A stretch of 64,000 bases of DNA from an uncultured Gammaproteobacteria bacterium (GCA_964360785.1 CAYHXX010000001.1:73334-137333); one strand, 5' to 3'. Shown: positions 1-19,961, counted from the stretch's first letter. Made by a program: numbers and translations. Notes: generated from the sequence alone by a model not told the origin.

Positions 1-519
1 ACGGATGAGGCCTCTTACTAGCTTCTGAGGATCTTCTTCATAAAGTACGGAGCACTGGTGTTTGTGGGCTATCTCAGTAATTTCTTTAATCTCATCTGCA
101 ATTCCTCCACTATTTACCAAAACCCCGAGTGGTTTTTTGTCTTCAAAAGCTACCGTGAACTCATTGAGGGTACCAATACGTCCGCAGACGACGATCACGG
201 CATCGGCACTCCGAGTCAGTATTAGGTTTCTCCCCGCATAACCAAATCCGGTATAAACTATCAAGTCCATGTAGCGAGTTGGGAGTTGGTAACGCTTGAT
301 GTGGTCTTCGTAGGTTGCAGCTGGGGAAAAGCCAATACTAACCCCATCGAGTTTCTTCGCACCTTTGGCCGCATAGAACGGAATCCCTGTGGTCGCCCCA
401 GAAACCAGAATAGCGCCACTGCGAGCGATCTCCTTGCCAATTTGTTCGGCTTTTTCTATTGTTTCGTCATTCAGACAGTCCCCAGTGGCTGCCCCACTCA
501 CGCAGATTTTGTAACTCAT
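1..519 (-). CDS. TIGR00725/LOG-like Rossmann-fold nucleotide-binding protein (C-terminus cut by window edge)
   Basis: Own translation of the minus strand from ATG at 519: MSYKICVSGAATGDC...GAILVSGATTGIPFYAAKGAK...VVCGRIGTLNEF. The Gly-rich Rossmann motifs are typical of the LOG/DprA-like TIGR00725 family. Its ATG overlaps the upstream gene stop (ATGA). Confidence 0.5.
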   Translation of the reverse strand, partial: MSYKICVSGAATGDCLNDETIEKAEQIGKEIARSGAILVSGATTGIPFYAAKGAKKLDGVSIGFSPAATYEDHIKRYQLPTRYMDLIVYTGFGYAGRNLILTRSADAVIVVCGRIGTLNEFTVAFEDKKPLGVLVNSGGIADEIKEITEIAHKHQCSVLYEEDPQKLVRGLIR

Positions 520-1658
520 TTAATCCCAATTAAAGGTAGTAAAAAATAATTATTTTGTTCTTTCACCTCACCTGCTTTTTTGATAGTTGTATCGTAATCT
601 TTCGCAAGATCTTTGTAGGATGACAGTGCTTTATTGTTTTGCCAAAAGTTTAGTTCGTGAATTGAAGTTTGTACCCCGAGGCTCTTGGTTTCGCTCACAA
701 AAGTAGCTAGTGCAGTTAATAGGTTTCCTGGATTGCTCACAGAATCAGTTTTCACAGTTTTGAAAAAATTAATAAGTAAATCAAAAACTGTAACTACATC
801 CTTATTAAGATCGTCCATTTCTGCCGGCAGTTCCTTTTTATCGTAGTTGGCAAACACATTTCTGATCTTGGTTAGGTCAGTAACTGAATTGTCGATATCA
901 TTTACCGATGTGATTGTATTTGAAATATTGTAAAGTTCGATTGCAGCATCGCTGACAGAAACATAGTATTTTGCAGTTTTGTCTGTTTCACTCAAATAAA
1001 GATCTGTCTTTTTGGTTGTTTCTTCAACATCTTTTTTGAGTAAATCTGCTCCTGAAGGTACACTACTTGTTTTCAAATGTAGCAACTTCTTCTTCAGTAG
1101 ATCTTGGGCAAGTTCTGACTTGTCAGAAATGTTTTCCGCGAGTTTTCTTTGCTGCCGAACGGCCTTGTTTGGATCGTTTTCCGGAATACTAAACCCTTTG
1201 ACCTGACTACTTCTCTCGAGCACTTCTCTTATACTTTTGAGTAGTAGCAAGGAATTTCCAGAAAGTGAGTTGGTTGCAGCAGAAGTGTTGGCAGCGAGTA
1301 CTCCAGAGTCTATTTCCGAAAGGCTTGTGTCATCCGAAGCGTTACTAGCAGTCAATGACTGGTAAAGTAGATCTAGCGATTCGTTTACGTTTTTGATTCT
1401 TGTATCTAGGGTTTCGAGTGTTTCCGCAGCGTTTGCTGCATACATCACATTTCTAGTACGTGGGATAACAATAAAACCTAAAAGTAGGACTGCTGCTAAA
1501 GAAAATATAGACAGGACAGCAACTGCAATAGGTGTCTTCTGGTTTAAATCAGTTTGGTTACTTGTTGGCACCTTTAGATTTCCAGCTGCATGGTCTGGAT
1601 GGATAAGGACCTGATTTTGAAACGTTGATTGAATTTTGGGCAAGTCAGAGGATTGCAT
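516..1658 (-). CDS. hypothetical membrane-anchored protein (N-terminal TM helix, Ser/Thr/Asn-rich extracellular region)
   Basis: 380-aa ORF with one hydrophobic helix (IAVAVLSIFSLAAVLLLGFIVI). It is translationally coupled (ATGA) to the downstream gene. Confidence 0.5.
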   Translation of the reverse strand: MQSSDLPKIQSTFQNQVLIHPDHAAGNLKVPTSNQTDLNQKTPIAVAVLSIFSLAAVLLLGFIVIPRTRNVMYAANAAETLETLDTRIKNVNESLDLLYQSLTASNASDDTSLSEIDSGVLAANTSAATNSLSGNSLLLLKSIREVLERSSQVKGFSIPENDPNKAVRQQRKLAENISDKSELAQDLLKKKLLHLKTSSVPSGADLLKKDVEETTKKTDLYLSETDKTAKYYVSVSDAAIELYNISNTITSVNDIDNSVTDLTKIRNVFANYDKKELPAEMDDLNKDVVTVFDLLINFFKTVKTDSVSNPGNLLTALATFVSETKSLGVQTSIHELNFWQNNKALSSYKDLAKDYDTTIKKAGEVKEQNNYFLLPLIGIK

Positions 1659-1760
1659 CTAGTAACTTCAATTTTCTCATACTTAGCTTGAACCTGTCAA
1701 AGGAAAAATGAAAGAAGGCAGTTCTAGGTCGCCTTCGATACCTTTCTCTTCTGCTTTCCC

Positions 1761-2483
1761 TTACCGCAACTGCCGTAGTTCTGTCCGGCATTCTCGGCAG
1801 AAGATCACTCCAACCCTTTCTTCCTCCTGGAGTTGTTCGATCCAGGTTTTGCGGTCGACTCCTTGACGCATGCAGCAAGCAGCGTTGGTGCAGTGCGTGC
1901 CCAGACTCTGCTCCACATTCCAGCCGCGGGCCGGTAGGCCTAGGACATGGCCGAACTCATGACTGGTACAACGTTGAATCAGCCGCAATCGTAGTTGCCG
2001 GTCAATCCCGGGCCGAAGGCGCGAGACGGATTCAACGTAGCCGAGTTTTGGCCATGCAGCCCCGAAGACGAAGTTGGTGTTTCCGGTGGAGCAGTCTCGG
2101 TCGAGCAGCATTACGTCGTAGTGCGGACGCTGTTGTTGGTAGGGCTCATTGGCCAAGTAGACCAGTACTTGATTGGCGTTTACTTGAGCCCCGAGGCCGA
2201 TGTCCCTTTTCGGATTGAACATCGATCGATCCTGGTACCAATCAGGACTCCCATAGTCTCCGTCCGCGATCGGCAACGAGCCGAAGACCAAGACTTGCCA
2301 GTCGAGTTCCCCTGCTCTTAGCACGTCGTGGACTCCTTCGACTGCTGCGTGTCCCTCATCACCATCGACGCCGCTGGTCCAGCTGACATAGATGGGTTTG
2401 CGTGGGAACTCACGCTTGCGTCGCTCGCTTTCGACCGTCCGGATTACCGGGGTTGGTCTGATCCGTACGATTGGTGTTGCCAT
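1761..2483 (-). CDS. archaemetzincin-like zinc metalloprotease (peptidase M54-like)
   Basis: HEFGHVLGL followed by C-x4-C-C-M and a distal CRECR pair, matching the archaemetzincin HExxHxxG...CX4CXM...CXXC pattern. NFVFGAAW precedes it. The gene sits in a high-GC (about 60%) segment with a GGGTGGGAGA SD before the ATG. Confidence 0.5.
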   Translation of the reverse strand: MATPIVRIRPTPVIRTVESERRKREFPRKPIYVSWTSGVDGDEGHAAVEGVHDVLRAGELDWQVLVFGSLPIADGDYGSPDWYQDRSMFNPKRDIGLGAQVNANQVLVYLANEPYQQQRPHYDVMLLDRDCSTGNTNFVFGAAWPKLGYVESVSRLRPGIDRQLRLRLIQRCTSHEFGHVLGLPARGWNVEQSLGTHCTNAACCMRQGVDRKTWIEQLQEEERVGVIFCRECRTELRQLR

Positions 2484-2697
2484 TCTCCCACCCTCTTGGT
2501 CTCGACCTTACGGTCGGCTACTTCCCCTATCTTCTGATTAAATCAATACTCTTCCAGTACCATCTTCTTCCAGTCAGCCAGCGCCATCTGGGTAGAAAAG
2601 GAAATTGGCGTACGTGACGGACATGCCAGTACCTGTACATGGATCATCCCCTCCACTGAAGGGGAATTATAACTCACCTAGCAATAATATTGATTCG

Positions 2698-3240
2698 CTA
2701 AGAACTTTTCCAGGGTTGGTCGGGGTGTCCCGCTGATTGGTTTTCGACTCGGGCGAGGACAAAAAACAGGTCGGAGAGCCGGTTGAGGTATTTTTTTATT
2801 TCGGGATTCACATCTTCCAAATGTGTAAGTTTTCTTTCAGTTCGTCTTGTGACGCTACGTGAAAGGTGAAAATAAGCAGCTGCACGGGAACCTCCAGGTA
2901 ATATAAATTGGTTTAGTTTTGGTAACACGTTTTCGAACCGATCAATATATTTTTCAATTTCCACAACGTCAGAGTCCTTCAAATTGAAAGAAGCAGTGCT
3001 ATCACCTGCTTTCTCTGGGTTGGCCAGTTCGGCTCCGATCTCAAATAACTTATTTTGTATCTGCTGGACGATTTGTTTTATTTCTTCGCTCCCCGTCTCA
3101 GAAGCGCAGACTCCTAGAGTCGCATTTATTTCGTCGACACTACCGATCACCTCTATTCGCGGATCTGACTTTTTGACCCTTTTGCCCCCAAATAAAGAGG
3201 TTTCCCCGCTATCGCCAGTCTTAGTGTAAATTTTTACCAT
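2698..3240 (-). CDS. ATP:cob(I)alamin adenosyltransferase, PduO type
   Basis: N-terminus MVKIYTKTGDSGETSLFGGKRV is the hallmark of PduO/MMAB-type adenosyltransferases; length 180 aa. Confidence 0.8.
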   Translation of the reverse strand: MVKIYTKTGDSGETSLFGGKRVKKSDPRIEVIGSVDEINATLGVCASETGSEEIKQIVQQIQNKLFEIGAELANPEKAGDSTASFNLKDSDVVEIEKYIDRFENVLPKLNQFILPGGSRAAAYFHLSRSVTRRTERKLTHLEDVNPEIKKYLNRLSDLFFVLARVENQSAGHPDQPWKSS

Positions 3241-3243
3241 TTA

Positions 3244-4110
3244 TTAAATTTCGCTAAAATAATTGTAAACTAACCTTGCGCTATTTTGTATTGAGGTAAA
3301 GCGTGTTTCCCAAGGGGAACCTTTGGTGTCATTAGTAAAAATAGTTAAGATAAAAGGATTTTTGGGATGGATAACGATTGCAGCATCATGCACCCCACCC
3401 TGAAAGGTTCCAGTTTTGTGATAAAAATTTACTCCAGAGGGAACAGCCGGTGAAATACGGTTCTCAGTTTCGGTATTTTGCATGTAGGAAAAGAAAAGCT
3501 TGCGGTGCTCTTCTGTCAAAATCTCACCTTTGTAGAGTTTTAATAACAACTCGTTTTCACCTTTGGCGGACATCAAGTTTCCCCAAATCTTGACGTTGGT
3601 CAGTCCCAGTTGATCCGAGACTTCTTGCTGGTGGTCAAAGCTTTGTAGCTGGTTGAAATATTCCCAGGAGTTGTTGTTGCTTTGATTGATCATCTGTTGC
3701 AGGTTATACTCCACCGTCTTCGAGAGAGAATACTTCCCTGCTTCAATATCCCTAAAAGCAGTGGTGGCCACCACAGTTTTCATGACCGAAGCAGCGTGAA
3801 ATTGTTCAAGTTCGGCTATTCCAAAGGACTCATTGTTGTTGATGTCAAAAATAGCTATCCCAAATTTTTCATTTACAACTAGTTGAGTTTGGATTGTTGC
3901 CAGCAGCTGCGTCTTCTTTTCTTCTCTCAATTTTTTTGCAAGAGCTGCAGCTTCCGCAGTAGCCTTCTCGTTCTTATCATTTTTTTCCAGAACGGTTTCC
4001 TTTGAGATCACTTCTTGTAGGTTATTTAACAAGCTGTTGTGTGGTAGCAAAATCAGAAAGCCCAGCGCAAAAAGGAGTATTACTAGTTTATAGCGTTTCT
4101 TTATTTTCAT
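3244..4110 (-). CDS. class A beta-lactamase-like serine hydrolase (secreted)
   Basis: Signal/TM N-terminus, an SxxK motif (ASVMK) and a KTG motif (HKTGT). It lies 3 nt from the adenosyltransferase gene. Confidence 0.55.
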   Translation of the reverse strand: MKIKKRYKLVILLFALGFLILLPHNSLLNNLQEVISKETVLEKNDKNEKATAEAAALAKKLREEKKTQLLATIQTQLVVNEKFGIAIFDINNNESFGIAELEQFHAASVMKTVVATTAFRDIEAGKYSLSKTVEYNLQQMINQSNNNSWEYFNQLQSFDHQQEVSDQLGLTNVKIWGNLMSAKGENELLLKLYKGEILTEEHRKLFFSYMQNTETENRISPAVPSGVNFYHKTGTFQGGVHDAAIVIHPKNPFILTIFTNDTKGSPWETRFTSIQNSARLVYNYFSEI

Positions 4111-4115
4111 AACAG

Positions 4116-4712
4116 TTAGTTAAATTTGAAAGATTTGACTATATCGAGAGCAGAAGTGTAAGTGTCTTTGTCAGTAGCTCTGATCCAAAAAGTTGTTAGT
4201 GTTGTTTTTGTAGTCGCTGGTAGCACTAGCACACTAAAGTATCCGCCTGTATTATACGCATACTCTGTCATTTCGATTTCCTTGCCATTTACTTTGATTC
4301 TTACTTTATTTGTAGCAGAAATGCTGTTCTTCTGTTCTTGGCTGAGGCTGTAAGGTTGTTCAACTCGCAGCCAGATCTCAACAGAATTGGCCTCGTTTTG
4401 AATTAAAACACCCGGGGTACCAGATTGTCTTTCCTCAGCCTTCCAACTCTCTGGAAAAATAATGGAGTATTTTTCATTAGGACTTTCAAAAGTAGTTTTT
4501 CCGGCAGCAGTTTTGGTAGTCGCTTTACCGCCGACAGCTGTTTCTAATGAATTGCTCTCCATCCGGCCAAAAAAGTAACCGCCACCAAAGAATAATCCCA
4601 CAAAAACCAAAAGGACGATAAGGATTGTCACTGTTAAGCTAAATTTGCTTACCGAAATTTGGGGAGAAGGGATTTCGACAACCTTCTCATTGTGTTCAAA
4701 AGTAACCTCCAT
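4116..4712 (-). CDS. hypothetical membrane-anchored protein
   Basis: 198-aa ORF with a single TM helix (LTVTILIVLLVFVGLFFGGGYFF). It is the first gene of a three-gene minus-strand run. Confidence 0.5.
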   Translation of the reverse strand: MEVTFEHNEKVVEIPSPQISVSKFSLTVTILIVLLVFVGLFFGGGYFFGRMESNSLETAVGGKATTKTAAGKTTFESPNEKYSIIFPESWKAEERQSGTPGVLIQNEANSVEIWLRVEQPYSLSQEQKNSISATNKVRIKVNGKEIEMTEYAYNTGGYFSVLVLPATTKTTLTTFWIRATDKDTYTSALDIVKSFKFN

Positions 4713-4769
4713 ATAACTGAAATGATACAGGGCTTGAACAAATGTGTAAAGTTTGGGAAGATTAACTAG

Positions 4770-5300
4770 ATGTCCAAAGAAATATTGTTAAATGAAACGA
4801 ACCTTAGTCTAGTTACGATCCTAATAATTGCAGTACTCACTTGGGTGGCGCTTCAAATCTTTACCAAAGCCTTGGTTGATCGGATTACAGTCGGGACTCC
4901 GAGAGGAAGACGATTTCACACACTGAGTAATGTTTTTAAAGCTTTTGTCTCGGCGTTGATCTTAGCTTTCTCAGTCTTTGAAACACTTAAGGTTTTGGGT
5001 TTTGATCTAGCTCCTTTTTTGGCAAGTGCTGGAGTAATCGCCTTGGCGATTGGGTTTGGTTCGCAAGCCTTGGTCAAAGATATTGTCAGCGGATTCTTTT
5101 TGCTGGCCGAGGATCAGTTTTCTGAAGGTGATGATGTCGAGATAGCGGGAAAACGTGGTATAGTTGAGAGGATGAACATAAGGACAGTTTATCTACGTGA
5201 TAAGGATGGGATACTGCACCTGGTACCCAACGGTGCCATCAGTGTTGTATCCAATTTTTCCAGACAGAAAAAGACAATTAAAGAGAAAGGGCCCCGATGA
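4770..5300 (+). CDS. small-conductance mechanosensitive channel (MscS family)
   Basis: TM helices followed by GFGSQALVKDIVSGFFLLAEDQFSEGDDVEI, the conserved MscS pore/beta-domain region. Confidence 0.75.
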   Translation: MSKEILLNETNLSLVTILIIAVLTWVALQIFTKALVDRITVGTPRGRRFHTLSNVFKAFVSALILAFSVFETLKVLGFDLAPFLASAGVIALAIGFGSQALVKDIVSGFFLLAEDQFSEGDDVEIAGKRGIVERMNIRTVYLRDKDGILHLVPNGAISVVSNFSRQKKTIKEKGPR

Positions 5301-5707
5301 AAAAAATACTTTTAGTGGAAGATGATGTGTTTATTCGAGATATCTATGGACGGGAGTTGAAAAAAGGAGATTATCAGGTAGATATTGCTGAGGATGGTGA
5401 ATCAGGGGTTGCCAAATCAACATCTGTAAAGTACGACATCCTCCTGCTTGATATCATGCTCCCAAAAAAGACTGGGATTGATGTCTTGCGTGAACTTCGT
5501 GCTGCACCAGCACCATATAAAGACACTCCAGTTTACCTCCTGACCAATCTCGGTCAAGGGTCGATCATCAAACAAGCTGTCGATATCGGTGCTCAAGGGT
5601 ATCTTCTCAAAGCCCGTTTCTTACCTTCACAGGTTCTTGAAACAGTCGACCGTTTCTTTCGTGAAGGCCCAATGAAGATCGATCTTAAAGAATTTGGTTT
5701 GGAATAA
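5297..5707 (+). CDS. stand-alone response-regulator receiver domain (CheY-like)
   Basis: MKKILLVEDD...ILLLDIMLPKKTGIDVL...LLK carries the phospho-acceptor and conserved Lys pattern. No output domain. ATGA overlap with the MscS gene. Confidence 0.8.
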   Translation: MKKILLVEDDVFIRDIYGRELKKGDYQVDIAEDGESGVAKSTSVKYDILLLDIMLPKKTGIDVLRELRAAPAPYKDTPVYLLTNLGQGSIIKQAVDIGAQGYLLKARFLPSQVLETVDRFFREGPMKIDLKEFGLE

Positions 5708-5709
5708 AT

Positions 5710-5940
5710 TTAGTTGCCGGTTGTTCGGTAAAGAGTAAAAATTGACGAAAAAGTTATCAGGTAGAAAATAATAGTTAACACCCCAAAAACCACTAAACCA
5801 ATAATCCAGATCTTGGTTTTCTTCTTTTTAATAGAACTAAACAGGTAGCCACTCAAAAAGAAAATCGCCAGAAAAAGAAAAACTCCGCTAAGGAACGAAA
5901 AGTTTCTAATAAAACCAAGTAAGGTAGAAATATCAACCAC
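5710..5940 (-). CDS. small hypothetical membrane protein (GTG start)
   Basis: 76-aa ORF with two hydrophobic helices. Start-codon context is weak. Confidence 0.3.
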   Translation of the reverse strand: MVDISTLLGFIRNFSFLSGVFLFLAIFFLSGYLFSSIKKKKTKIWIIGLVVFGVLTIIFYLITFSSIFTLYRTTGN

Positions 5941-6020
5941 CCCCTAATTGTATGGCTTTTAATGGGGCTACGCTACACAGTTATACAACTATAGGTTGAC
6001 AGTTTCGTAGAAATTACTGA

Positions 6021-6068
6021 ATGCTATAACCTATAGCATTTGACTTTTGAAGCTAAATATGCTACACT
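6021..6068 (+). promoter_or_regulatory. sigma70-like promoter (TTGACT-17-TACACT) preceded by the perfect palindrome ATGCTATAaccTATAGCAT
   Basis: TTGACT at 6040-6045, a 17-nt spacer, TACACT at 6063-6068. The 8-bp inverted repeat at 6021-6039 abuts the -35. It is an AT-rich element in front of a high-GC gene. Confidence 0.45.
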
Positions 6069-6133
6069 GGTTTCAGTAAAAAGGCAGTCGTGTGACTGTT
6101 CTTTTTTGTACTCTACAAGGAAAGGAGTTTGCC

Positions 6134-6928
6134 ATGCCCGCCCGTGGCAAAAGACCACCAAACCCACCCAGTGCTTGCCGTCACAACAAGGCAGCTGGAC
6201 CGCTCGCCGTTGGTCTCTACCTCGCGATGTTGGTTCTGCTGATGGTTGGTGCCTCGATGTATTTCAGGTACCACACAGAGTGGCAGCGATACCAGCAGCT
6301 GCGGAACTTCTTCGGGGCCCTCGCCCAGAATAACGCGGAGGCCTCCGTCGGAGTTCCAGTTGAAGAAAGCCCTCAGGCTATCTTCAATATAACTCCTGAG
6401 TGTCGTGAGCAGTGGGACAACTACATGGAAGGCCACACTTTCTTGTACGAACCGCAGCGGTTCGGGCATCGGGAGTTTGGACTTCCAGACATCTCGTTCA
6501 CGGAGGACGAGAAGAACTGGTTCGAGGCCTTGGGTTGCAGCGAGTCGAAGTATCACCACTTCGATCCGGATAACAATCCATACGCGGCCACAGATCACGA
6601 AGGACGACCTTTGATCACCTCAGGGGCCGGCTGTGTCAGCATCTACCAAGGGTGCAACCTCAGCATTTGTCCTAAGGAGCTGTGGAGCGAGCTCAAGACC
6701 AACATCTGGTGCGGAGCCAAGCTCTTCCGTCAGCTGTTGGACCAGTTCCCAGGCGATATGGACATGGTCCTCGCCTGTTACAAGGACGCCGTGGTGAAAA
6801 TCGATACGGATGGGGATGGCTATAAGGAAACCTACGTCTATGACCAGGTGACCGGAAATGTCATCCCCGACCCCGAACTCGATTGGCAAGTCCAGACGGT
6901 TAGGGATTTGGTAACAAAAGTTCCGTAG
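6134..6928 (+). CDS. lytic transglycosylase-like protein (SLT domain) with N-terminal TM helix
   Basis: ES...SGAGCVSIYQ and ACYKDA resemble the SLT catalytic Glu-Ser, GLMQ and AYNAG motifs. The likely start is MPARGKR after the RBS AAGGAAAGGAG; the ORF track began it at an upstream ATG at 6092. The segment is about 58% GC. Confidence 0.45.
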   Translation: MPARGKRPPNPPSACRHNKAAGPLAVGLYLAMLVLLMVGASMYFRYHTEWQRYQQLRNFFGALAQNNAEASVGVPVEESPQAIFNITPECREQWDNYMEGHTFLYEPQRFGHREFGLPDISFTEDEKNWFEALGCSESKYHHFDPDNNPYAATDHEGRPLITSGAGCVSIYQGCNLSICPKELWSELKTNIWCGAKLFRQLLDQFPGDMDMVLACYKDAVVKIDTDGDGYKETYVYDQVTGNVIPDPELDWQVQTVRDLVTKVP

Positions 6929-6942
6929 TAGTACAGCGTCGG

Positions 6943-6976
6943 GTGTGGTGAGAATAAAGCGAATCATTCGCTCTCA
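6943..6976. terminator. nested hairpin (GGTGAGA..GCGAAT c ATTCGC..TCTCACC) between convergent genes
   Basis: 7-bp outer and 6-bp inner inverted repeats seen directly. No strong U-tract, so function as a terminator is uncertain. Confidence 0.35.
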
Positions 6977-7027
6977 CCCGCCCGGCGTCTCTGTTTCTAA
7001 TACTCTTTTTACTCCAAATTTATTTTC

Positions 7028-7858
7028 CTAAGTTGTAGTCGGCGTCGATTCTGGTGTTGGAGCAGCAGGTGCTAGTTCAGGTGCTGGTTCTGGTGCTGGT
7101 TCTGGTGTTTGAGTCGGTTCTGGTACCGCCGCTACAGGTGCTGGAGCGACTGGTGCCGCAGCAACAGGGGCTGGGGCTACTATGCTACCCGAGAGTTTTC
7201 GGTATGCAAAAGCATAAGCTATCATAATAACAGGGATTGCAACAAACAAACCAACTAGTAGCGCTAGTGCCCCAGCAATTGCAATCAGTCCGGAAACTAC
7301 TCCTAAGAAAACTAGATTCCACCAATTTCCTTTGGTAATTTCATAGCTAGACTTGATTGCATCGATTGGCCCAGCTTTCTTGTCAACCACAACATAGGTT
7401 GTCATACTAAGTTTTACTGCTAAGTAGATTCCCGGAATTATAAAAAATAAAAATCCAGCCAAGACTATTAAACCTTCTAAAATTGAAGCTCCAATATATT
7501 TAAGAGCCAATGGATACTGTTGGTACAAATCTTTAAGGTCACCTTTTTTGCCGTCAACAAAATCAAGAAAAATTTTCATCATGCCAATTGAAATCAGAAG
7601 ACTGATGATTGTAGATATGACATTAAGTAAGGTAACTATAGCTGGATTACCAGCAAAAACCCCTTCTTTGGTTTGTTGATATTGGGTACTTCCAACGTTA
7701 ACGTAAACATTCGTTTCTCCAGTAAGCCAAGACACCAGAAAACTAACTCCAAATTGAAAGATACCTAAAATCACGACAAGAATAATAAAAAAGCCCACAT
7801 TTTTCTTGAATGTTTCCCAACCAAATGCTAAAGCTTCTGAAATAGAAAAAGTATTCAT
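7028..7858 (-). CDS. polytopic membrane protein with Pro/Ala-rich C-terminal tail
   Basis: Several TM helices and a C-terminus APAPVAAAPVAPAPVAAVPEPTQTPEPAPEPAPELAPAAP, encoded by tandem GGTGCTGGTTCT units. Confidence 0.55.
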   Translation of the reverse strand: MNTFSISEALAFGWETFKKNVGFFIILVVILGIFQFGVSFLVSWLTGETNVYVNVGSTQYQQTKEGVFAGNPAIVTLLNVISTIISLLISIGMMKIFLDFVDGKKGDLKDLYQQYPLALKYIGASILEGLIVLAGFLFFIIPGIYLAVKLSMTTYVVVDKKAGPIDAIKSSYEITKGNWWNLVFLGVVSGLIAIAGALALLVGLFVAIPVIMIAYAFAYRKLSGSIVAPAPVAAAPVAPAPVAAVPEPTQTPEPAPEPAPELAPAAPTPESTPTTT

Positions 7859-7951
7859 TTGAATAAATTCCTCCTTTAATATAAGTCTGAGCTGTTTATG
7901 AGTGGCCTGTCAAGAGAAATTCTGCATTATAAGATACTTTTTGTTCATGAT

Positions 7952-9175
7952 TTACTCGTAACGAAGTGCGTCGATTGGGTGTTTTCGTGATGCACCAATT
8001 GCGGGAATAATCCCAAAGATAATACCCACAAAACCAGAAAACCCTAGTGCCAAAAGCAAAACCGTTGGTTCAAGTTTGATTGGAATTGGAGAATTTTCTG
8101 GAATCAAAGTTACAATTGTGGAAAAGATAGCGATGGCAAGTAGACCACCAACCAGAGTTAGTATCATACTTTCAATCAGAAATTGCAGTAGGATGGCTCC
8201 TTGAGTAGCACCGACAGCCTTGCGGATTCCAATTTCCCGTGTTCTTTCGCTGACCGAAACGAGCATAATATTCATAATTCCAATCCCACCGACAAGAAGT
8301 GAAATTGCCGCAAGTGCACCAAGCAGCGCCGTTACTGTATCTAGAATTCCTCCAGTAACTTGAAGCAAATCTTCCTGGCTCAACACTGTAAAGTCTTCTT
8401 CTCCCTTGTGGGTTTTGAGCATAACTTGTTTTACTTCCTTTTTAATTTTATCTACGGAGTCAGCATCCGGAGCTTGCATCGCGATTCGGAAAACTGATTT
8501 TGTGTTGGTTAGCTCCCAGCCAGTGTGTATTGGCATCATGATAACGTCATTAAAGTCCGGGCCACCGAGGTTGGAGGCAGTTTCAACAGTGTTAAAAATA
8601 CCGACAACTGTAAATTCAGTTGAGCGAATTTCCAAAGTTTCTCCCAGCGGGTCGGAACTACCAAAAAGTTTGCTAACTGTTTTTGGACCAATCACCACAT
8701 TTTTTGCCTTTAAATCATCATCAGCGCTTGTTAGTAGTCGACCTCGGTTTAAACTAAGATTGAATATTTCTTCAAATCCACTAGAGCCGGCCAAAATAGA
8801 AGCCGTATCAGAAGTTTTGTTGCCAACACGAGAGGTTCCGGAGAGCAAAAGTGCGACAGAAATCTTTTTGGCATCTTTGACATCGCGTTTAATAGCGAGA
8901 AAATCCTCTTCGGTTAGGGTGCTTTGGCCAAACTGGGCGGTCAAGTTTGTACCACCATCTTCACTAAATTGTCTTCCGGGAGTGACGGCTACCAGATTTG
9001 TCCCGAGATCGGTGATAGAAGTCTCAACCTCGGAACGTACCCCGAATGCTAGAGAAAGCAAACTGGAAATCGTCAGAATGCCAATAACTATTCCCAACAT
9101 TGAAAGAAAGCTACGAGCCTTCTTTGAAAGCAATGATGCAATGGCCATTCTGATGCTGTCGACTAATAAGTTCAT
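7952..9175 (-). CDS. ABC transporter permease, MacB/FtsX-like
   Basis: N-terminal TM helix, a large periplasmic domain and a C-terminal FtsX-type four-helix region. The start overlaps the ATPase gene end by 4 nt. Confidence 0.85.
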   Translation of the reverse strand: MNLLVDSIRMAIASLLSKKARSFLSMLGIVIGILTISSLLSLAFGVRSEVETSITDLGTNLVAVTPGRQFSEDGGTNLTAQFGQSTLTEEDFLAIKRDVKDAKKISVALLLSGTSRVGNKTSDTASILAGSSGFEEIFNLSLNRGRLLTSADDDLKAKNVVIGPKTVSKLFGSSDPLGETLEIRSTEFTVVGIFNTVETASNLGGPDFNDVIMMPIHTGWELTNTKSVFRIAMQAPDADSVDKIKKEVKQVMLKTHKGEEDFTVLSQEDLLQVTGGILDTVTALLGALAAISLLVGGIGIMNIMLVSVSERTREIGIRKAVGATQGAILLQFLIESMILTLVGGLLAIAIFSTIVTLIPENSPIPIKLEPTVLLLALGFSGFVGIIFGIIPAIGASRKHPIDALRYE

Positions 9176-9828
9176 ACTAGCCTCCCATCATTCAACTTAA
9201 TAATCCGATCAGTTTTTTCGGCCAAGGAGTTGTCATGCGTGACGAGTATTACTGTTTTTCCTTTTGAATTTAATTCTTTCAGAAGCTGAAAAATAGCTTC
9301 TCCCGTTTTGCTGTCAAGGTTACCGGTTGGTTCATCAGCCAAAATAATTTCCGGATCGTTAACCAAAGCTCTAGCAATCGAAACCCGTTGTTGTTCCCCA
9401 CCGGAGAGTTGGTTCGGTTTGTTACCTAGTTTTTCTTTAAGCCCAACTTCGGAAAGAAGTTCAACTGCTTTTAATTTCCGGTTAACTTTCTTGTGTGTAT
9501 AAATCAAAGGCAAGATTACGTTGTTTAGACTATTAGTTCCTTGCAAAAGATTGAAGAATTGAAAGACAAAACCAACCTTTTCATTCCGATATCTAGCTAG
9601 TTGCTTGCCGTTTAATTCACCTAAGTTTTGCTCATCGACAACTATCGTTCCACTTGTTGGCTGATCAAGACCGCCAATTAGGTGCATGAGAGTTGATTTC
9701 CCACTTCCCGAGGGGCCAAGAATGGCAACGAACTCACCTTTCTGGATTTTGAGAGAAATATTTTCAAGGGCTGTGAAAGTAGTTTCGCCGGTTTTGTAAG
9801 TTTTGTGTAGGTTGGAAATTGTGATCAT
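9172..9828 (-). CDS. ABC transporter ATP-binding protein (MacB/LolD-type)
   Basis: Walker [10 protein letters not shown], signature [15 protein letters not shown] and Walker [12 protein letters not shown]. Confidence 0.9.
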
Positions 9829-9896
9829 GAAAGGTTATTTTAGGGGTTGGAGACAGTTTATTCAAGGAAAGAAATTAACTTTCTTTTAAAATAGTG

Positions 9897-9924
9897 AAGG
9901 GAAGCGCGCAGCAGATGACGCTTC
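9897..9924 (-). terminator. hairpin GGGAAGCG-N12-CGCTTCCC followed by a U-rich tract on the minus strand
   Basis: Perfect 8-bp inverted repeat immediately downstream of mini-peptide C. Confidence 0.45.
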
Positions 9925-9949
9925 CCTTAGACCAACAGTGTTGTGACCT

Positions 9950-10069
9950 CTATCCCCCGGTGTAGTCGTTCTCCCGTTCGAATCCTTCTTCCAGGCCAGC
10001 GATGATGAGTACAATCGCTGCTGTGGTTACAGCGACCGCCAGTGCGCTGACGACAAGTACCTTTCTCAC
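9950..10069 (-). CDS. single-TM mini-peptide C (39 aa, GTG start)
   Basis: AGGAGG (10076-10081) lies 6 nt before the GTG. Product VRKVLVVSALAVAVTTAAIVLIIAGLEEGFERENDYTGG has a basic N-terminus, one TM helix and an acidic tail. Confidence 0.45.
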   Translation of the reverse strand: MRKVLVVSALAVAVTTAAIVLIIAGLEEGFERENDYTGG

Positions 10070-10098
10070 GCAGCACCTCCTAGGTGATTGCGATTCGT

Positions 10099-10203
10099 TT
10101 ACTCGACGTACCTCTCGGGATGTGGGTCGATTGTGTCTCCCAGACATTCCAGGAAACCCCAGACTGCTAGCAAGATTGCCGCGGCGATGACGACCTTCTT
10201 CAT
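10099..10203 (-). CDS. single-TM mini-peptide B (34 aa)
   Basis: AAGGAGGTACCGACATG: a strong SD, and the ATG overlaps the stop of peptide A (ATGA). Product MKKVVIAAAILLAVWGFLECLGDTIDPHPERYVE. Confidence 0.5.
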   Translation of the reverse strand: MKKVVIAAAILLAVWGFLECLGDTIDPHPERYVE

Positions 10204-10346
10204 GTCGGTACCTCCTTGTAACCGATGTCTCCCGTTTTTCCGTCGGCGCAGAGAATGACTTCCGTACCATCCGGAGGAGCGTTGGCTATTTCGTAGATGA
10301 GCCAACCCAGACAGACGCCTGCTAGAACGAGCAATAGCTTGAGCAA
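10200..10346 (-). CDS. single-TM mini-peptide A (48 aa, TTG start)
   Basis: GGGAGGGG lies 6 nt upstream of the TTG. Product MLKLLLVLAGVCLGWLIYEIANAPPDGTEVILCADGKTGDIGYKEVPT. An upstream in-frame ATG exists, but the SD then falls inside the ORF. Confidence 0.4.
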   Translation of the reverse strand: MLKLLLVLAGVCLGWLIYEIANAPPDGTEVILCADGKTGDIGYKEVPT

Positions 10347-10362
10347 CTGATTCCCCTCCCTA

Positions 10363-10446
10363 CTAGTGCGCTGCAACCGCAACGGCTCCGATGATGACGA
10401 TTCCGTAGTAGATTGCCAAGGCGATCCAACCCTGCCTTGTTATCAT
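10363..10446 (-). CDS. single-TM mini-peptide D (27 aa)
   Basis: GGAGCCGCTCACATG. Product MITRQGWIALAIYYGIVIIGAVAVAAH. Alternatively it is the C-terminus of a 116-aa ORF (10363..10713) that reads through an AT-rich promoter-like stretch and a perfect hairpin. Confidence 0.4.
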   Translation of the reverse strand: MITRQGWIALAIYYGIVIIGAVAVAAH

Positions 10447-10550
10447 GTGAGCGGCTCCTTCCGCTGCTAGGACAATGAAAAGTGCGAGATAAGATAATTG
10501 TACGCTTTTTGTTTTGTTTACAAAAGTATTGCTTGGGGAAAAATGGGTGG

Positions 10551-10597
10551 TCGGGAGACGGCACTGAGTTAACAGCAATCCGTCTCCCGTATGGAAT
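10551..10597. repeat. perfect 9-bp inverted repeat GGGAGACGG-N18-CCGTCTCCC
   Basis: Seen directly. On the minus strand it is followed 10 nt later by UUUUU, so it may act as a terminator or attenuator for the transcript coming from the 10852-10880 promoter. Confidence 0.4.
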
Positions 10598-10851
10598 CCC
10601 GTGAGACTAAGCAGCCGGTACCGCCTCAGGAGCTCTTGCTCATCTGCAAGGGAGTGGTATTTCACTTTTCGACTCCACGCTCGCCGAAACATGAGCGCTT
10701 CATTGTCTCCCACCTATGCTACGCCTCAAGCAGATACCTCACCAAGACCAACGGTAAGGATTCGAACCTTACTAAGCCACTCTCGTGACTTGTCCACAGT
10801 TTGAGCCAGGTTTGCTCGCTCTGTCGTTGTTTCCACGTTTGCAATTATAGT

Positions 10852-10931: not shown

Positions 10932-11744
10932 TTAAAGTCCTGCAGCAGCATCTACAAGACCGTGTTGGTTCGCTCTGCGCCAGAACCCGTGTTCTCCGGT
11001 GCGAATCAGGAGAAGATGAGCGAGCATCTCGTCCGAAGGCACCATGCACCCGGCGTAAGTTCGACGGTAGTAACCGAGTGGGTGCAGGCACATCGCGGCC
11101 AGGAATTGGGTTGCCTCGACTCCCCTCTCCACCTTCCATTCGCGGTAGGCGACGGTGGGTCGGCTAGCGCGAATCAGATAGCGCACCCCGCTCTTACCGA
11201 CCTCGACGAAAGAGTTGGTCAGAGTCAACTGACGTTTCTGCTCTCGACTCAGTTGGGACAGCAACCCCTTGCGAGCTTTCTTCTCCGCCCGACTGCTGGC
11301 AGTCTTCCAGACGACTTTGTCGGTGCGCATCAACAAGTCGTAACTGTGGTCCCAGCGGTGTAGGACGAAGTGGAGATATTCTCCAGTGACAGTGCGGTAG
11401 ACCAGGACCATGACGTCTGGATAGGGCATCCAAACGTTGATCACTGACCAGCGAACATCTTCGTCGATCAATGCCTTCCATTTGGCAAGGAAGCGATCCC
11501 AGTACTCTCCGCTCATTGCGCCAAAGTTGAAGTTCCGCATTTGGAGATCGTCTTCATCACCTTCCGCGACGTTGGGGTGGAAGTTGATGTCGAAGAGGTC
11601 GCGCAGCCTTCCGTCAGCGTTGCCGACGAGTTGGTAACCCTTGATCAACTTCGGTACACCGTAACCGTTTTTGCCAGTCAGTGCCTCTCGTAACTGCTCG
11701 TGTTCTGGCAGGTCGAGCTTGAGCATTCTTTGCTGCGGTGGCAT
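10932..11744 (-). CDS. hypothetical protein (270 aa, Trp-rich, no recognisable family)
   Basis: The ATG is preceded by GGAGGCTAAG, which overlaps the stop of the upstream 97-aa gene. About 58% GC. A hairpin (GGCATCTC..GAGATGCC) lies just downstream. Confidence 0.5.
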   Translation of the reverse strand: MPPQQRMLKLDLPEHEQLREALTGKNGYGVPKLIKGYQLVGNADGRLRDLFDINFHPNVAEGDEDDLQMRNFNFGAMSGEYWDRFLAKWKALIDEDVRWSVINVWMPYPDVMVLVYRTVTGEYLHFVLHRWDHSYDLLMRTDKVVWKTASSRAEKKARKGLLSQLSREQKRQLTLTNSFVEVGKSGVRYLIRASRPTVAYREWKVERGVEATQFLAAMCLHPLGYYRRTYAGCMVPSDEMLAHLLLIRTGEHGFWRRANQHGLVDAAAGL

Positions 11745-11745
11745 C

Positions 11746-12039
11746 TTAGCCTCCAGCAGTTGGCGGTACGATATTCACCGAAGCTCCATTGGCGGGGATG
11801 CGGAAGGTTTGCCGACCGCGCCGCGTTTCGTTCTTGCGAACGATCAGCTCGTCGTTCTTGAGGTCGTAGCCGGTGACGCGGAAATCGTTGCCACCAGCAG
11901 CAACGAAGATTGCTGCTCCGTCACGTAGATTTTCCTTGATGAGAGTTGCGACTTCGACCCGACCCTCTTTCGTGCTGGTGTCGATCTTGCGACGTCGGTC
12001 ACCCTCGCGCACGTTCAGCTGGATGATCTCGATAGACAT
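11746..12039 (-). CDS. hypothetical protein (97 aa)
   Basis: Start MSIEIIQLNV is preceded by GGGAGG 8 nt upstream. An extended -10 (TGTTATAAT) lies further upstream at about 12095-12110. Confidence 0.45.
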   Translation of the reverse strand: MSIEIIQLNVREGDRRRKIDTSTKEGRVEVATLIKENLRDGAAIFVAAGGNDFRVTGYDLKNDELIVRKNETRRGRQTFRIPANGASVNIVPPTAGG

Positions 12040-12255
12040 GGACGAATACCTCCCTGCTTTCACCTGCCTCTCCTTTCAAGGCGGGCTATCTATTATGGGA
12101 CATTATAACACAAAAAGGTTTTAGCTCATCAGAGAAAATTTTGTAGCCGTCGGATCCGTATCGACACGGAAAGGTGTTGGCTTATCGAAGTTTTACCGAA
12201 ACGCAAGGACCTATAGCTATTGACAAGGTACTATTTGGGTGCTAAAATATTTGCA

Positions 12256-12951
12256 ATGTTAAATAAGATCTTAGCTATAGGTTTTACTTTAGTCGCAGCA
12301 TCCTTTATTGCTGCTAGTCCGACGTTTGCAAAAAGCAATAACTCCAATCATTCACAAGATAAACCAACTAAATCCGAGATTGTTTTTGACCTTCCTGACA
12401 GTGGAGATAACCTCCACCCTTCAGGCAAAGATCGTAGTGTAGAGCCTGGCCGCTCACTGACTCAGGGGAAGTCCAAGTCTGATCCTGATGACAATAATAA
12501 AGGTCCAGAACGCTCAAACGGAAAATCTGATAAACCGGGAAGCGTTGGTGGTGTGGATAAATTTGATCAAGATGGCAACAACGGTTGTGGTAATGATGAT
12601 GATTTTGAAGACGACAATGAAGGTTGGTGTGGTCACAAGCCAAAGAAAGACCACGAAGAAAAATGCGAGAAAGATTGTTCACACGACAAAGATAAAGATC
12701 ACGATAAAGACGACGACAAAAATTGCGGCAAGGGTGGTTCAGACAAGGAAAAACCCAAGCCTCTAGTAGTAATTACTGAACCCAAAACTAGTTCTACTCC
12801 ACAAACTGGTAGCGTGTTGGGAATTTCCCAGCTTCCAAATACCGCCAACGAATCTGATTCTGATTTTAGCTTCATTTGGCTCGCCTTGGCGATAATTTCT
12901 ACTGGTGCGGGGTTGAACTTAGTTGCCCGCAAGTATGAAAAACTTTCCTGA
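12256..12951 (+). CDS. secreted Asp/Lys-rich, Cys-containing surface protein with an LPxTG-like (LPNTA) cell-wall sorting signal
   Basis: Signal peptide MLNKILAIGFTLVAASFIAASPTFA|K. A highly charged D/K/H region carries spaced Cys (CGND..WCGHK..KCEKDCSHDKDKDHDKDDDKNCGKGG). The C-terminus has LPNTA, a hydrophobic stretch and RKYEK. The ORF track started at a TTG at 12220, but that TTG is the TTGACA of a TTGACA-17-TAAAAT promoter. Confidence 0.55.
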   Translation: MLNKILAIGFTLVAASFIAASPTFAKSNNSNHSQDKPTKSEIVFDLPDSGDNLHPSGKDRSVEPGRSLTQGKSKSDPDDNNKGPERSNGKSDKPGSVGGVDKFDQDGNNGCGNDDDFEDDNEGWCGHKPKKDHEEKCEKDCSHDKDKDHDKDDDKNCGKGGSDKEKPKPLVVITEPKTSSTPQTGSVLGISQLPNTANESDSDFSFIWLALAIISTGAGLNLVARKYEKLS

Positions 12952-13082
12952 AAAAATTAGTCTAAATATTTCTGATCTTTTTTACGGCGCAATTGGCGCG
13001 TTTGTTGGTACAATGTCTGGTGTTGCCCTGACAAGCTTTGTCCTCTATCTCATTCTTTCTCACGTCTCTGTTTTGAAATAAA

Positions 13083-13112
13083 TAAAAAATCCCGCTGGGC
13101 CGTGCGCGGGAT
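13083..13112 (-). terminator. rho-independent terminator (ATCCCGC-N10-GCGGGAT + U tract) after the M23 peptidase gene
   Basis: Minus-sense AATCCCGCGCACGGCCCAGCGGGATTTTTTATTTATTT. A-rich on the other side, so it may also serve the convergent plus-strand gene. Confidence 0.6.
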
Positions 13113-13676
13113 TCATGGCAAGTAATCGATCGGGTTTACTCTCACTCCATTGTCGATGACTTCGAAGTGCAGGTGTATTCCTGTGCTATAGCCGGTTGAA
13201 CCAGCGATAGCGATCATTTCTCCTTGTTTGACCTGTTCTCCTTGAAAAACCTTTATCTCTGCAAGATGTGCATAAAGAGTTTCTACACCTTCCAGGCTCA
13301 TTATCACCAAGTAGTTTCCGTACGAGCAACACGGGTTTCCTCCAGCGAAGACAACTTCTCCTTCGGTCGCTGCCTTGACTTGTAGTTCTTCAGTACCTAA
13401 CTGTCGAAAACCCAAATCAATATCAATTCCTAACGGGTGTCCTGGGCCATAGTATGCAGCAATTGGCCCCTCAATCGGCCAAGCTAAACTTTGCCTAGAT
13501 GTCTGGATTGTCGGTGTTATATCTTTTCTTTCCGGTTGGTATATTGATACGTCCTTTGACGAATGAACAGGAATAACTCCGAAACCGACGAGCAAAACGA
13601 GGCCGGGAACGAATTCAGTCAGGACGCCAAGAAAAAACTTGGCCGAACGTTCGTTGCGTAGCCGTTTCATGACCAC
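13113..13676 (-). CDS. M23 family metallopeptidase (LytM domain)
   Basis: GIDIDL...GEVVFAG...YGNYLVI...HLAEI...GSTGYSTGIHLHFEV, the full M23 motif set. N-terminal TM anchor. Confidence 0.8.
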   Translation of the reverse strand: MVMKRLRNERSAKFFLGVLTEFVPGLVLLVGFGVIPVHSSKDVSIYQPERKDITPTIQTSRQSLAWPIEGPIAAYYGPGHPLGIDIDLGFRQLGTEELQVKAATEGEVVFAGGNPCCSYGNYLVIMSLEGVETLYAHLAEIKVFQGEQVKQGEMIAIAGSTGYSTGIHLHFEVIDNGVRVNPIDYLP

Positions 13677-13699
13677 TTCCTTTCACGGGAAGGATTTTA

Positions 13700-14212
13700 C
13701 TATGGAAAAGTTATTCTGTCACCTACTTTAAGATTATTTTCTTTGAAAAAGCCGGCGTTTACTTCCAGAACATTTGTGACAACTTGGGGTGAAGAGAAAG
13801 TTGGAATGTCTTCCATGGTTGGAATAGGAGCATTTTCCTCAACTCCCACGATGATCCCATCAGCGATCCAAATAATATCAATTGGAAATCTCATACCCCT
13901 CATCCAGAAACTAGCAACTTGTTTTTTGTCCAAAACAAAATACATCCCAGAACCTTCCTCGAGTGAATTACGATAAGACAGCCCAGTAACTATTGCTGCC
14001 TGTGTGTCAGCGATCTCCACGTTTATAACCTTATCCCCTACCTCCAGTTTCTTTTTTTCTAAAGTATTGGAGGTGCTACTTGCAGTCTTATTAAATGTTT
14101 GGGTATTGGAGTTGGAACTGTTTTCTCTAAAACTTAAGTAAATCGCGATTAAAATTACAGACAGCAAGAAAGCTATAACCACGATTTTCTCTTTTGGATG
14201 CAGCAGATGCAT
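13700..14212 (-). CDS. DUF192/COG1430 family protein
   Basis: GLSYR...GMYFVL...ASFWMRGMRFPIDIIWIADGIIVGV matches the DUF192 signature (GLM.R...FWM.N...PLDI.F.D). Confidence 0.6.
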   Translation of the reverse strand: MHLLHPKEKIVVIAFLLSVILIAIYLSFRENSSNSNTQTFNKTASSTSNTLEKKKLEVGDKVINVEIADTQAAIVTGLSYRNSLEEGSGMYFVLDKKQVASFWMRGMRFPIDIIWIADGIIVGVEENAPIPTMEDIPTFSSPQVVTNVLEVNAGFFKENNLKVGDRITFP

Positions 14213-14287
14213 GTATATATTGTACTGTCAAGTTGCGACTTTTGGCAAAGTTTCTGTATAATCCAAAAGTTCTTGAAGGGAGTGGTC

Positions 14288-15223: not shown

Positions 15224-15267
15224 TAGGACGAGGTCATGACATAAATGAGGGAAGAGAGATGAAACAT

Positions 15268-15300
15268 AAAAGCCGCTTTCGAGTACTCGGGGCGGTTTTT
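15268..15300 (+). terminator. probable terminator hairpin + T tract after the DegV gene
   Basis: AGCCGCTTTCGAGTACTCGGGGCGGTTTTTCTTTTT, an imperfect stem followed by a T-run. Confidence 0.4.
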
Positions 15301-15307
15301 CTTTTTG

Positions 15308-19959: not shown

Positions 19960-19961
19960 CA

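Follow-up and report, generated by a model that had tools for sequence, protein, structure and literature searches.

How single GC-rich genes have come to lie in an otherwise AT-rich chromosome is the question raised by a 64,000-nt stretch of groundwater DNA (GCA_964360785.1, CAYHXX010000001.1:73334-137333; hereafter the window), which belongs to the ~43% GC chromosome of a member of the Saccharimonadia (Patescibacteria). Its backbone consists of ordinary chromosomal genes (gyrA/gyrB, recG, pheT, PBP1A, a pilB-type ATPase, dinB and a MacB-type ABC pair), and among them lie eight GC-rich coding sequences (CDSs), here called islets, which make up ~6% of the window and are mostly found within a variable ~24-kb stretch of the chromosome. 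We assign a probability of roughly 0.7 to the reading that the islets are horizontally acquired CDSs from GC-rich pools, which differ in source and in age and are drifting toward the composition of the AT-rich recipient. To judge from sequence comparisons, one gene clearly derives from Chloroflexota and one gene pair from GC-rich phages, and none can be traced to Actinobacteria. The initial annotation had seen in these segments single genes acquired repeatedly and fairly recently from a high-GC donor, possibly an actinobacterial host; the foreign high-GC origin stands for the eight CDSs, but the Actinobacteria do not, the acquisitions are mostly not recent, and not every segment is a protein gene.

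The compositional contrast itself is sharp. The window has a GC content of 0.428, and its 53 backbone open reading frames (ORFs), the reference set against which all z-scores were computed, have a GC content of 0.418 (standard deviation 0.031, maximum 0.471) and a GC content at third codon positions (GC3) of 0.379 (standard deviation 0.048, maximum 0.506). The eight islet CDSs range from 0.543 to 0.586 in GC (z 4.0-5.4) and from 0.620 to 0.716 in GC3 (z 5.1-7.1), a range that no backbone gene overlaps, so that the GC-rich islets first noticed are confirmed as outliers (z 4-7; Table 1). The GC content goes up at the start codon and down at the stop codon, and the islets have a coding pattern, the values at first and third codon positions (GC1 and GC3) both being well above that at the second (GC2). 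The GC-normalised dinucleotide distance of Karlin (delta*, x1000) between islets and backbone is 140, compared with 40±14 (maximum 105) in 300 draws of size-matched backbone sets and with 15 between the backbone and two relatives. The 120 nt upstream have a GC content of 0.35-0.44 in six transcription units; higher values are found for islet 1 (0.49) and for the 270-aa gene (0.58), located behind its 105-aa partner. Of the eight genes, seven have a strong Shine-Dalgarno (SD) sequence, the 99-aa gene being the one that lacks it. Promoter-like boxes are recognisable 5' of islet 2 and of the 105-aa, SpeH, Cys-rich and 73-aa genes, of which a consensus promoter scan recovers only the site of islet 2. 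These results support the initial view of the islets as single CDSs of foreign, high-GC origin behind AT-rich local upstream DNA.

The most informative islet is the SpeH gene. Its annotation as S-adenosylmethionine decarboxylase is borne out by a full-length match to Pfam PF02675 (E = 4e-26, 91.9 bits where the cut-off is 25, covering all 107 profile positions), and the self-cleavage motif, the predicted pyruvoyl-forming site, reads LIAESHIAVHTFPE, with E63, S64 and H65 invariant in the alignment. Contigs from Hainich groundwater (well H52, 0.1-µm fraction) and three additional assemblies contain an identical SpeH. Among 1.84 billion cluster representatives the best relative is 60% identical and no close full-length one was found. 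Decisive was a scan of 185,579 species genomes, of which the first 600 pattern matches were evaluated: among the matches listed 78 of the best 80 loci came from Chloroflexota/Dehalococcoidia or "Chloroflexia" metagenome-assembled genomes (MAGs; up to 86% amino acid identity), one was a relative of the window (contig CAYIWY010000005.1, hereafter L027; the loci compared carry L numbers and database proteins P numbers), and none was from Actinobacteria or labelled Patescibacteria. The Chloroflexota genes have GC3 values of 0.85-0.90 (~0.87) in surrounding DNA and genomes of 0.65-0.70 GC, and they are flanked, with matching GC, by citrate synthase, a cytidylate-kinase-like gene, plsY and an S41 peptidase; because this context consists of housekeeping genes, SpeH is regarded as native there. 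The window gene is 78-81% identical in nucleotides to its closest clade (L015-L026) and 69-77% identical to more distant Chloroflexota copies, the homology starting at the ATG (18200) and ending at ~17800, ~20 nt before the stop codon, so that it covers the CDS only. Its GC3 (0.716) is intermediate between donor (~0.87) and recipient (0.38). In neighbour-joining (NJ) analysis every bootstrap tree (100%) nests the SpeH sequences of the window and of L027 within the Chloroflexota clade L015-L029, which confirms, for this gene, the transfer from a high-GC donor. At the level of sequence, these comparisons demonstrate horizontal transfer of SpeH from a Chloroflexota/Dehalococcoidia-like chromosome of 65-70% GC.

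In L027 the gene lies in the order p371, Cys-rich ORF, p327, SpeH, Y1 transposase, DinB, with a GC3 of 0.65 against ~0.39 in its flanks. The two Saccharimonadia copies are only 77% identical to each other, the window copy being closest to L015/L016 (86%) and that of L027 to L024-L026 (86-87%), and they group as sisters in 1.2% of NJ bootstraps. Quartet patterns gave means of 4.2 sites for separate affinities and 1.7 for a pairing as sisters, the remaining topology receiving 0.1; the sites for separate affinities cluster in one 10-residue block (EPHVFEYRGD vs VPNVFEYAGV). Because fixed differences between the two Chloroflexota subgroups are limited to three sites, a claim of two donors was downgraded, and two donor alleles or a conversion tract at the SpeH locus are suggested. 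Synonymous sites proved too weak to date SpeH against the backbone, the four-fold identity between the window and L027 being 0.52±0.07 compared with 0.41 in DinB and 0.34 in XerC (~1.8 standard errors, SE). The Y1 transposase adjoining SpeH in the window has a conserved counterpart (59%) near the L027 SpeH, with reversed orientation. Annotation of part of the window, for which about half of the ORFs were scanned, revealed no spermidine synthase as a partner.

The 105-aa and 270-aa genes have an operon layout, the stop codon of the first abutting the start of the second, and a terminator hairpin follows the 270-aa gene (10925-10893). In 5.8 billion proteins there are 19 homologues of the 270-aa protein, for which no fold match was obtained. 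Full-length homologues occupy the same locus beside ABC/MacB genes in L011 and L012 and are syntenic in L009, and 105-aa homologues lie 5' of the 270-aa homologue in L009, L012 and L014. The GC3 of the 270-aa homologue is 0.66 in L014, 0.64 in L009 (against ~0.43), 0.42 in L012 (against 0.32) and 0.43 in L011 (against 0.30 in the backbone), and an excess over the respective backbone is present in all five lineages; in L009 the shared islet genes as a whole have GC3 values of 0.64-0.68 against ~0.43 in the flanks. Two half-length relatives (P0016 and P0014) are encoded on phage-like contigs of uniform GC (0.59 and 0.66; L175 and L176), which carry DUF5131, a P22-family protein, RtcB and an SbcCD-like pair. 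When IMG/VR was scanned with an alignment, 41 viral contigs (median GC 0.61) proved to encode the C-terminal domain of the 270-aa protein, and in one of these contigs (L194) a 117-aa homologue of the 105-aa partner abuts the family member in the same two-gene layout; no cultured phage carries the family (tblastn, 50,697 phages). The 105+270 operon is a member of a family that high-GC phages carry, and it entered before at least five Saccharimonadia lineages diverged. In L175, RtcB, a metallophosphatase and an AAA_23 (SbcCD-like) pair (13058-14248 and neighbours) lie near the family member, and these neighbours, with roles in RNA repair and DNA-end processing, might hint at the functional neighbourhood of the 270-aa family.

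The age of the islets was judged from relatives of the window. The closest named one is the "Candidatus Saccharimonadales bacterium" MAG GCA_035480955.1 (L006), syntenic with window positions 500-9800, and further syntenic relatives are GCA_030704665.1 (L009), GCA_025449635.1 (L011) and L027. The latter is deposited as "uncultured Gammaproteobacteria bacterium", a label that is probably wrong, because its XerC and DinB are 88% and 84% identical to those of the window and it has the Saccharimonadia gene order, sharing the Y1 transposase and the local arrangement. Four-fold site identity between the backbones of the window and these four relatives is 0.21-0.41, with 0.24-0.31 expected at saturation. 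Islet 2, the 105+270 pair, SpeH and the Cys-rich gene lie at the same loci in relatives and are GC-enriched there too; because the four-fold sites of those backbones are near saturation, these islets must be old. The four islets or pairs therefore predate the split from near-saturated relatives, contrary to the fairly recent acquisition first supposed, and only islet 1 is specific to the lineage.

Islet 1 is missing from the Cob_adeno_trans junction in L006 (which has a 56-nt spacer there), L009 and L011; it is a lineage-specific insertion and the only islet younger than the splits from these three. Only two homologues were found among the 5.8 billion proteins. The sole distant one is a low-GC gene on a low-GC contig, and high GC is therefore not intrinsic to the family. 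An SD sequence, GGGTGGGAGA, stands immediately 5' of the ATG. The protein matches the PDB profiles 4axq/3zvs (E = 2.8e-7) across the HExxHxxGxxH and four-cysteine motifs (HEFGHVLGL...GTHC..C.M...C..C, conserved in P0002), which upholds the label "archaemetzincin-like"; it falls under the gathering score of Pfam M54 (PF07998; 13.3 bits vs 24.4, E = 0.084). From these matches it is best described as archaemetzincin-like and not as a curated M54 member. The region from DUF192/M23 to Cob_adeno_trans is a hot spot for small high-GC genes.

Islet 2 encodes 264 residues if counted from the ATG at 6134, which follows GGAAAGGAG, rather than from the mechanical ORF start (GTG 6092), and this length agrees with its database twin P0003. 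The single non-identical homologue (P0004) is ~70% (BLASTP) or 68% (tblastn) identical over the C-terminal ~197 residues and lies at the same locus in L006, with a GC3 of 0.61 against ~0.40 in the flanks. The earlier designation "SLT-like" is doubtful: its basis is a PHROG transglycosylase match (E = 0.003) and the NCBI name of P0004 (lytic transglycosylase domain-containing), with no Pfam match even at E <= 10 and no PDB sequence match. An AlphaFold2 model (pLDDT, the predicted local distance difference test score, 41) was unusable, only a helix at about residues 37-60 (numbered from GTG 6092) being confident. The Cys-rich protein has only weak zf-RING_2/DZR matches. At the equivalent position L027 has a Cys-rich ORF (GC3 0.54) with a similar CxxC...YGxCxxC..FC motif, the alignment of the two being weak (32% identity over 50 residues). 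No family match was obtained for the 73-aa protein, which has no relative in any fetched locus, nor for the 99-aa protein, whose cluster has two members only. For islets 1 and 2 and for the Cys-rich, 73-aa and 99-aa genes no viral, phage or plasmid relatives were found, the viral scans of the first two having been empty. The 50,697 cultured phages, many of them actinophages, gave no tblastn match to islet 1, to islet 2, to the 270-aa protein or to P0014, and the plasmid tblastn was likewise empty.

Table 1. Islets and other features of the window (positions in nt; z-scores given for GC and GC3 in this order).
Feature	Position	Strand	GC	GC3	z	Remarks
Islet 1	1761-2483	-	0.574	0.635	5.0 / 5.4	240-aa archaemetzincin-like zinc metalloprotease gene
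Islet 2	6134-6928	+	0.553	0.683	4.4 / 6.4	264 aa; N-terminal membrane helix, Cys-rich C-terminal domain
Islet 3a, 105-aa gene	11746-12063	-	0.566	0.642	4.8 / 5.5	First gene of two-gene operon
Islet 3b, 270-aa gene	10932-11744	-	0.560	0.672	4.6 / 6.1	
SpeH islet	17778-18200	-	0.586	0.716	5.4 / 7.1	140-aa pyruvoyl-type S-adenosylmethionine decarboxylase
Cys-rich 97-aa gene	20216-20509	+	0.568	0.622	4.8 / 5.1	Zinc-ribbon-like CxxC pairs
73-aa orphan gene	23446-23667	-	0.563	0.635	4.7 / 5.4	SD GGATGGAGG
99-aa orphan gene	54491-54790	+	0.543	0.620	4.0 / 5.1	Between PBP1A and pheT
Candidate structured RNA	10536-10837	-	0.533			Unannotated, ~300 nt; counterpart L009 10883-11222 (+), including promoter
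Sigma-70 promoter of the RNA	10871-10844	-				TTGACA, 16-nt spacer, TATAAT; 12/12 matches; conserved in L009
Tail of segment 9830-12100	9830-10535	-	0.50			Tiny hydrophobic ORFs; doubtful 106-aa ORF (9950-10270)
27-aa hydrophobic ORF	10446-10363	-				MITRQGWIALAIYYGIVIIGAVAVAAH; strong SD
48-aa hydrophobic ORF	10346-10200	-				LLKLLLVLAGVCLGW...; strong SD
GGTGGGAGA, copy 1	2484-2492	-				Islet 1 SD
GGTGGGAGA, copy 2	10706-10714	-				Inside the RNA
GGTGGGAGA, copy 3	51922-51930	-				Antisense in the 5' end of PBP1A
DegV gene	14198-15223	+			1.3 / 2.1	Upper tail of backbone
Y1 (IS200-type, PF01797) transposase	17068-17610	-				Backbone composition; adjoins SpeH
XerC-like gene	22418-23341					Backbone composition; conserved in L027

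Islet 2 and the Cys-rich, 73-aa and 99-aa genes may be assumed to have a similar origin, their donors being as yet unsampled. The genes could have entered when cells took up DNA from the environment or from a host, or through an abortive phage infection, with illegitimate insertion as the second step, a mode proposed because no integrase, tRNA target or flanking repeats accompany the islets. Once inserted, the genes would be expressed from AT-rich local upstream DNA with its SD and promoter-like boxes, and their GC excess would be slow to decay, the GC3 excess of the 270-aa gene over its own backbone falling from about +0.25 in closer relatives to about +0.11 in more distant ones. A classical genomic island or integrative element was rejected, as there is no tRNA or transfer-messenger RNA (tmRNA) target (the only tRNA of the window lies at 62 kb) and no convincing repeat, and the XerC-like gene and the Y1 transposase are conserved backbone. 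A prophage was rejected too, phage relatives existing for the two-gene module only and PHROG giving nothing specific for the other islet proteins.

Several points weigh against this account. The foreign origin of five of the eight genes is read from composition alone, as they have at most two informative homologues and no named donor. Around islet 1 there are no convincing flanking repeats, and no insertion signature was found. The direction from phage to Saccharimonadia for the 270-aa family is deduced from its GC and from how widely it is distributed rather than from a rooted tree, and closer SpeH relatives in other phyla could, strictly speaking, lie beyond the 600 matches evaluated. Finally, islets 2 and 3 appear to retain a GC excess over the prediction of simple neutral decay, with wide uncertainty, and something may have slowed or reset the decay.

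Because of this retained excess, active maintenance has to be considered, i.e., that the islets, whatever their origin, are kept GC-rich by selection on mRNA or codons, by GC-biased gene conversion or by repeated homologous replacement. It agrees with the persistence of the excess at syntenic loci despite near-saturated backbone four-fold sites, with the somewhat higher four-fold identity in SpeH and in islet 2 (0.46 vs 0.21-0.41), and with the closer affinity of the two SpeH copies to different Chloroflexota subgroups than to each other. However, the excess shrinks with divergence (GC3 0.42-0.43 in L011/L012), the four-fold difference in SpeH is small relative to its error and the discrete phylogenetic signal there comes down to a few sites in a single block, and the islet 1 homologue is fully low-GC. 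Codon selection is further disfavoured because the ribosomal-protein-sized backbone genes have the lowest GC3, i.e., GC-ending codons are not favoured. We therefore consider active maintenance unlikely, though worth keeping in mind. A bolder and somewhat more doubtful scenario would combine a standing conduit of DNA from Chloroflexota and phages, Chloroflexota instead of Actinobacteria as the host, a SpeH locus into which different Chloroflexota alleles came more than once by acquisition or overwriting, such repeated conversion by host DNA keeping old islets GC-rich, and a phage-derived module with a new ~300-nt RNA bearing a tRNA-like domain.

Structured RNA genes are typically GC-rich in AT-rich genomes, and the GC-rich patches could accordingly be RNA genes instead of foreign protein genes. 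This appears to be true at one place. Segment 9830-12100, first taken as a single-gene islet, is a composite of the two-gene operon, an RNA gene and tiny hydrophobic ORFs, and one ORF-like stretch in it would owe its GC content to a structured RNA. The RNA is ~90% identical in nucleotides to its counterpart in L009, with 2- and 5-nt indels that break every frame and thereby rule out the mechanical ORF 10363-10713 as a protein gene, whereas neighbouring proteins are 40-70% identical. Its promoter closely follows the terminator hairpin behind the 270-aa gene, and the RNA ends in an intrinsic terminator of hairpin and T-run (10588-10539). The 5' third folds into a tRNA-like cloverleaf with a perfect T-arm (10771-10755, UUCGAAU loop) and no credible anticodon arm; farther 3', an SD-like GGUGGGAGAC can pair with the 3' side of the RNA's own terminator and is followed by a poorly conserved mini-ORF of 11-13 codons. 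The minimum free energy has a z-score of -2.06, and none of the nine substitutions in predicted stems disrupts pairing, one being compensatory (comparing two species copies, with the fold predicted from the same sequences). Stretch 10536-10837 is thus a candidate conserved structured non-coding RNA and possibly a new RNA family. For the other patches an RNA explanation is very improbable: they have a coding GC pattern, conservation at the amino acid level, length-matched homologues, and SD sequences with start codons, and Rfam matches nothing else in the window.

Neither Rfam nor ARAGORN at default settings called the RNA; ARAGORN gave a poor tRNA-Ser(GGA)-like call at -ps80 (3-bp anticodon stem, acceptor mismatches) and no tmRNA call even at -ps70. 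An identity as tRNA or tmRNA was rejected on the lack of a standard-threshold call, the lack of a CCA after the acceptor-like stem and the poor anticodon arm. No copies beyond L009/L010 were found by nhmmer over 218 loci or by exact-pattern viral scans, and blastn against phages and plasmids returned none except for one marginal 68-nt match (E = 6e-3). A decayed phage tRNA is unsupported, a tRNA occurring in only 1 of 43 phage loci. The element GGTGGGAGACAATG within the RNA (10714-10701) had been taken in the initial annotation for an SD with start codon, and two islets were said to share this context; the islet 1 SD stands, but the second copy lies inside the non-coding RNA and precedes no protein start. 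The 9-mer in question, GGTGGGAGA, occurs three times in the window against 0.33 expected, with no wider similarity around the copies, and its recurrence may be coincidence. Directly 3' of the RNA terminator sit the 27-aa and 48-aa ORFs, which resemble type I toxin or holin-like peptides. The tail of the segment is 70% identical in nucleotides to L014 1841-2425, where a 249-aa ORF takes the place of the RNA.

Cultivated Saccharibacteria grow on Actinobacteria, and the islet GC content of 54-59% would fit partly ameliorated actinobacterial DNA, which makes recent transfer from a high-GC actinobacterial host a natural proposal. It is contradicted for SpeH, where Chloroflexota take 78 of the best 80 loci listed and Actinobacteria none. 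The orphans have 2-19 homologues among the 5.8 billion proteins, none of them actinobacterial, despite dense sampling of Actinobacteria; the tblastn searches against cultured phages and plasmids were empty; and most islets are older than the divergence of the relatives. The proposal is hardly tenable, even less so than the RNA explanation. That chimeric assembly or binning mixed high-GC reads into a low-GC contig has practically no probability left, even though the sequence is a MAG from Hainich groundwater and a related contig is mislabelled "Gammaproteobacteria", since the SpeH locus recurs with the same flanks in five independent assemblies, a 497-kb NCBI contig and separate contigs at ENA encode islet proteins too, the islets, single CDSs with their own SD sites, have backbone genes on either side, and the same mosaic appears at syntenic loci in four other genomes.

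Some further observations concern the surroundings of the islets. The variable region is syntenic in L009, which has many more high-GC orphan ORFs there than the window (small ORFs of GC3 0.51-0.75 at 3264-3647, 4490-5171, 7876-8451, 11250-13337 and 18818-20404); the mosaic is therefore a property of the clade. The DegV gene, proposed as a mild islet, falls inside the backbone distribution; it adjoins DUF192 in L011 and is absent from L027. In the ~580-nt gap between DegV and DinB (15220-15800) the local GC rises to 0.59 with no convincing ORF: a 94-aa ORF has a non-coding GC1/2/3 pattern, Rfam gives no match, and homologues were found within the same species only. An outlier of the opposite kind, with the lowest GC in the window, is a 181-aa multi-pass membrane protein gene (21793-22338, +; GC 0.297, GC3 0.286) with an AT-rich intergenic flank. 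A metagenome scan anchored on the MacB permease gave no new relatives, RNA copies or islet homologues among the matches listed, which were homologues at 31-39% identity, the patterns used (HKGEEDF, IGIMNIM) being generic.

The hosts of almost all environmental Saccharimonadia are still to be found, and the Chloroflexota/Dehalococcoidia become a concrete host candidate through a nameable donor gene, possibly acquired more than once at one locus. Co-occurrence at the Hainich site points likewise to Chloroflexota: in a preprint on the Hainich virome, MAGs of the candidate phyla radiation (CPR) co-occur with Chloroflexota, among other phyla, as candidate hosts (10.1101/2025.05.30.656956). The window also illustrates that GC islets may stand out in a CPR genome although their acquisition is old, which matters for methods that equate atypical composition with recent transfer, and an RNA that is ~90% conserved between near-saturated genomes is a candidate for a new RNA family.

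Compared with known systems, the genes and the RNA each combine familiar with divergent features. Islet 1 has the HExxHxxGxxH motif and four cysteines of the archaemetzincins (M54; PDB 4axq, 3zvs, 2x7m) in its catalytic half but, unlike them, a ~145-residue N-terminal region that matches nothing, and it is almost an orphan. The SpeH protein of the window agrees with the AdoMet_dc family (PF02675) over its full length and in the ES|H self-cleavage motif; in Chloroflexota the gene is chromosomal and native, whereas here it is a lone xenologue in Saccharimonadia. tRNA-like domains occur in RNAs that are not tRNAs, such as tmRNA and the bacterial Y-RNA-like YrlA, and the candidate RNA likewise has a tRNA-like domain with a canonical T-arm; unlike these it matches no model of the Rfam library (which includes tmRNA, YrlA and T-box), and it has a ~200-nt 3' domain carrying an SD-like element and is found in two species only. 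Under the amelioration model of Lawrence and Ochman, foreign genes start at the composition of the donor and drift toward that of the recipient. The intermediate GC3 of SpeH and the shrinking excess of the 270-aa gene agree with it, unlike islets 2 and 3, which seem to keep more GC excess than simple neutral decay would leave next to neighbours with near-saturated synonymous sites. It is striking that the islets are so rich in GC, since foreign DNA more often tends to be AT-rich. In aquifer Patescibacteria, single transferred genes, islands and prophages make up to 13% of genome length, the transfers are mostly not recent (mean divergence 23.7%), and donors are diverse, most transfers taking place within the Patescibacteria and Chloroflexota not being mentioned (PMC12455944, mSystems 2025). 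The islets are alike in their share of the window and in the 19-22% nucleotide divergence of SpeH; they differ in that the traceable cellular donor belongs to the Chloroflexota and one module comes from high-GC phages. Gene transfer into aquifer Patescibacteria is thus already documented, and what is new here is Chloroflexota as a named donor.

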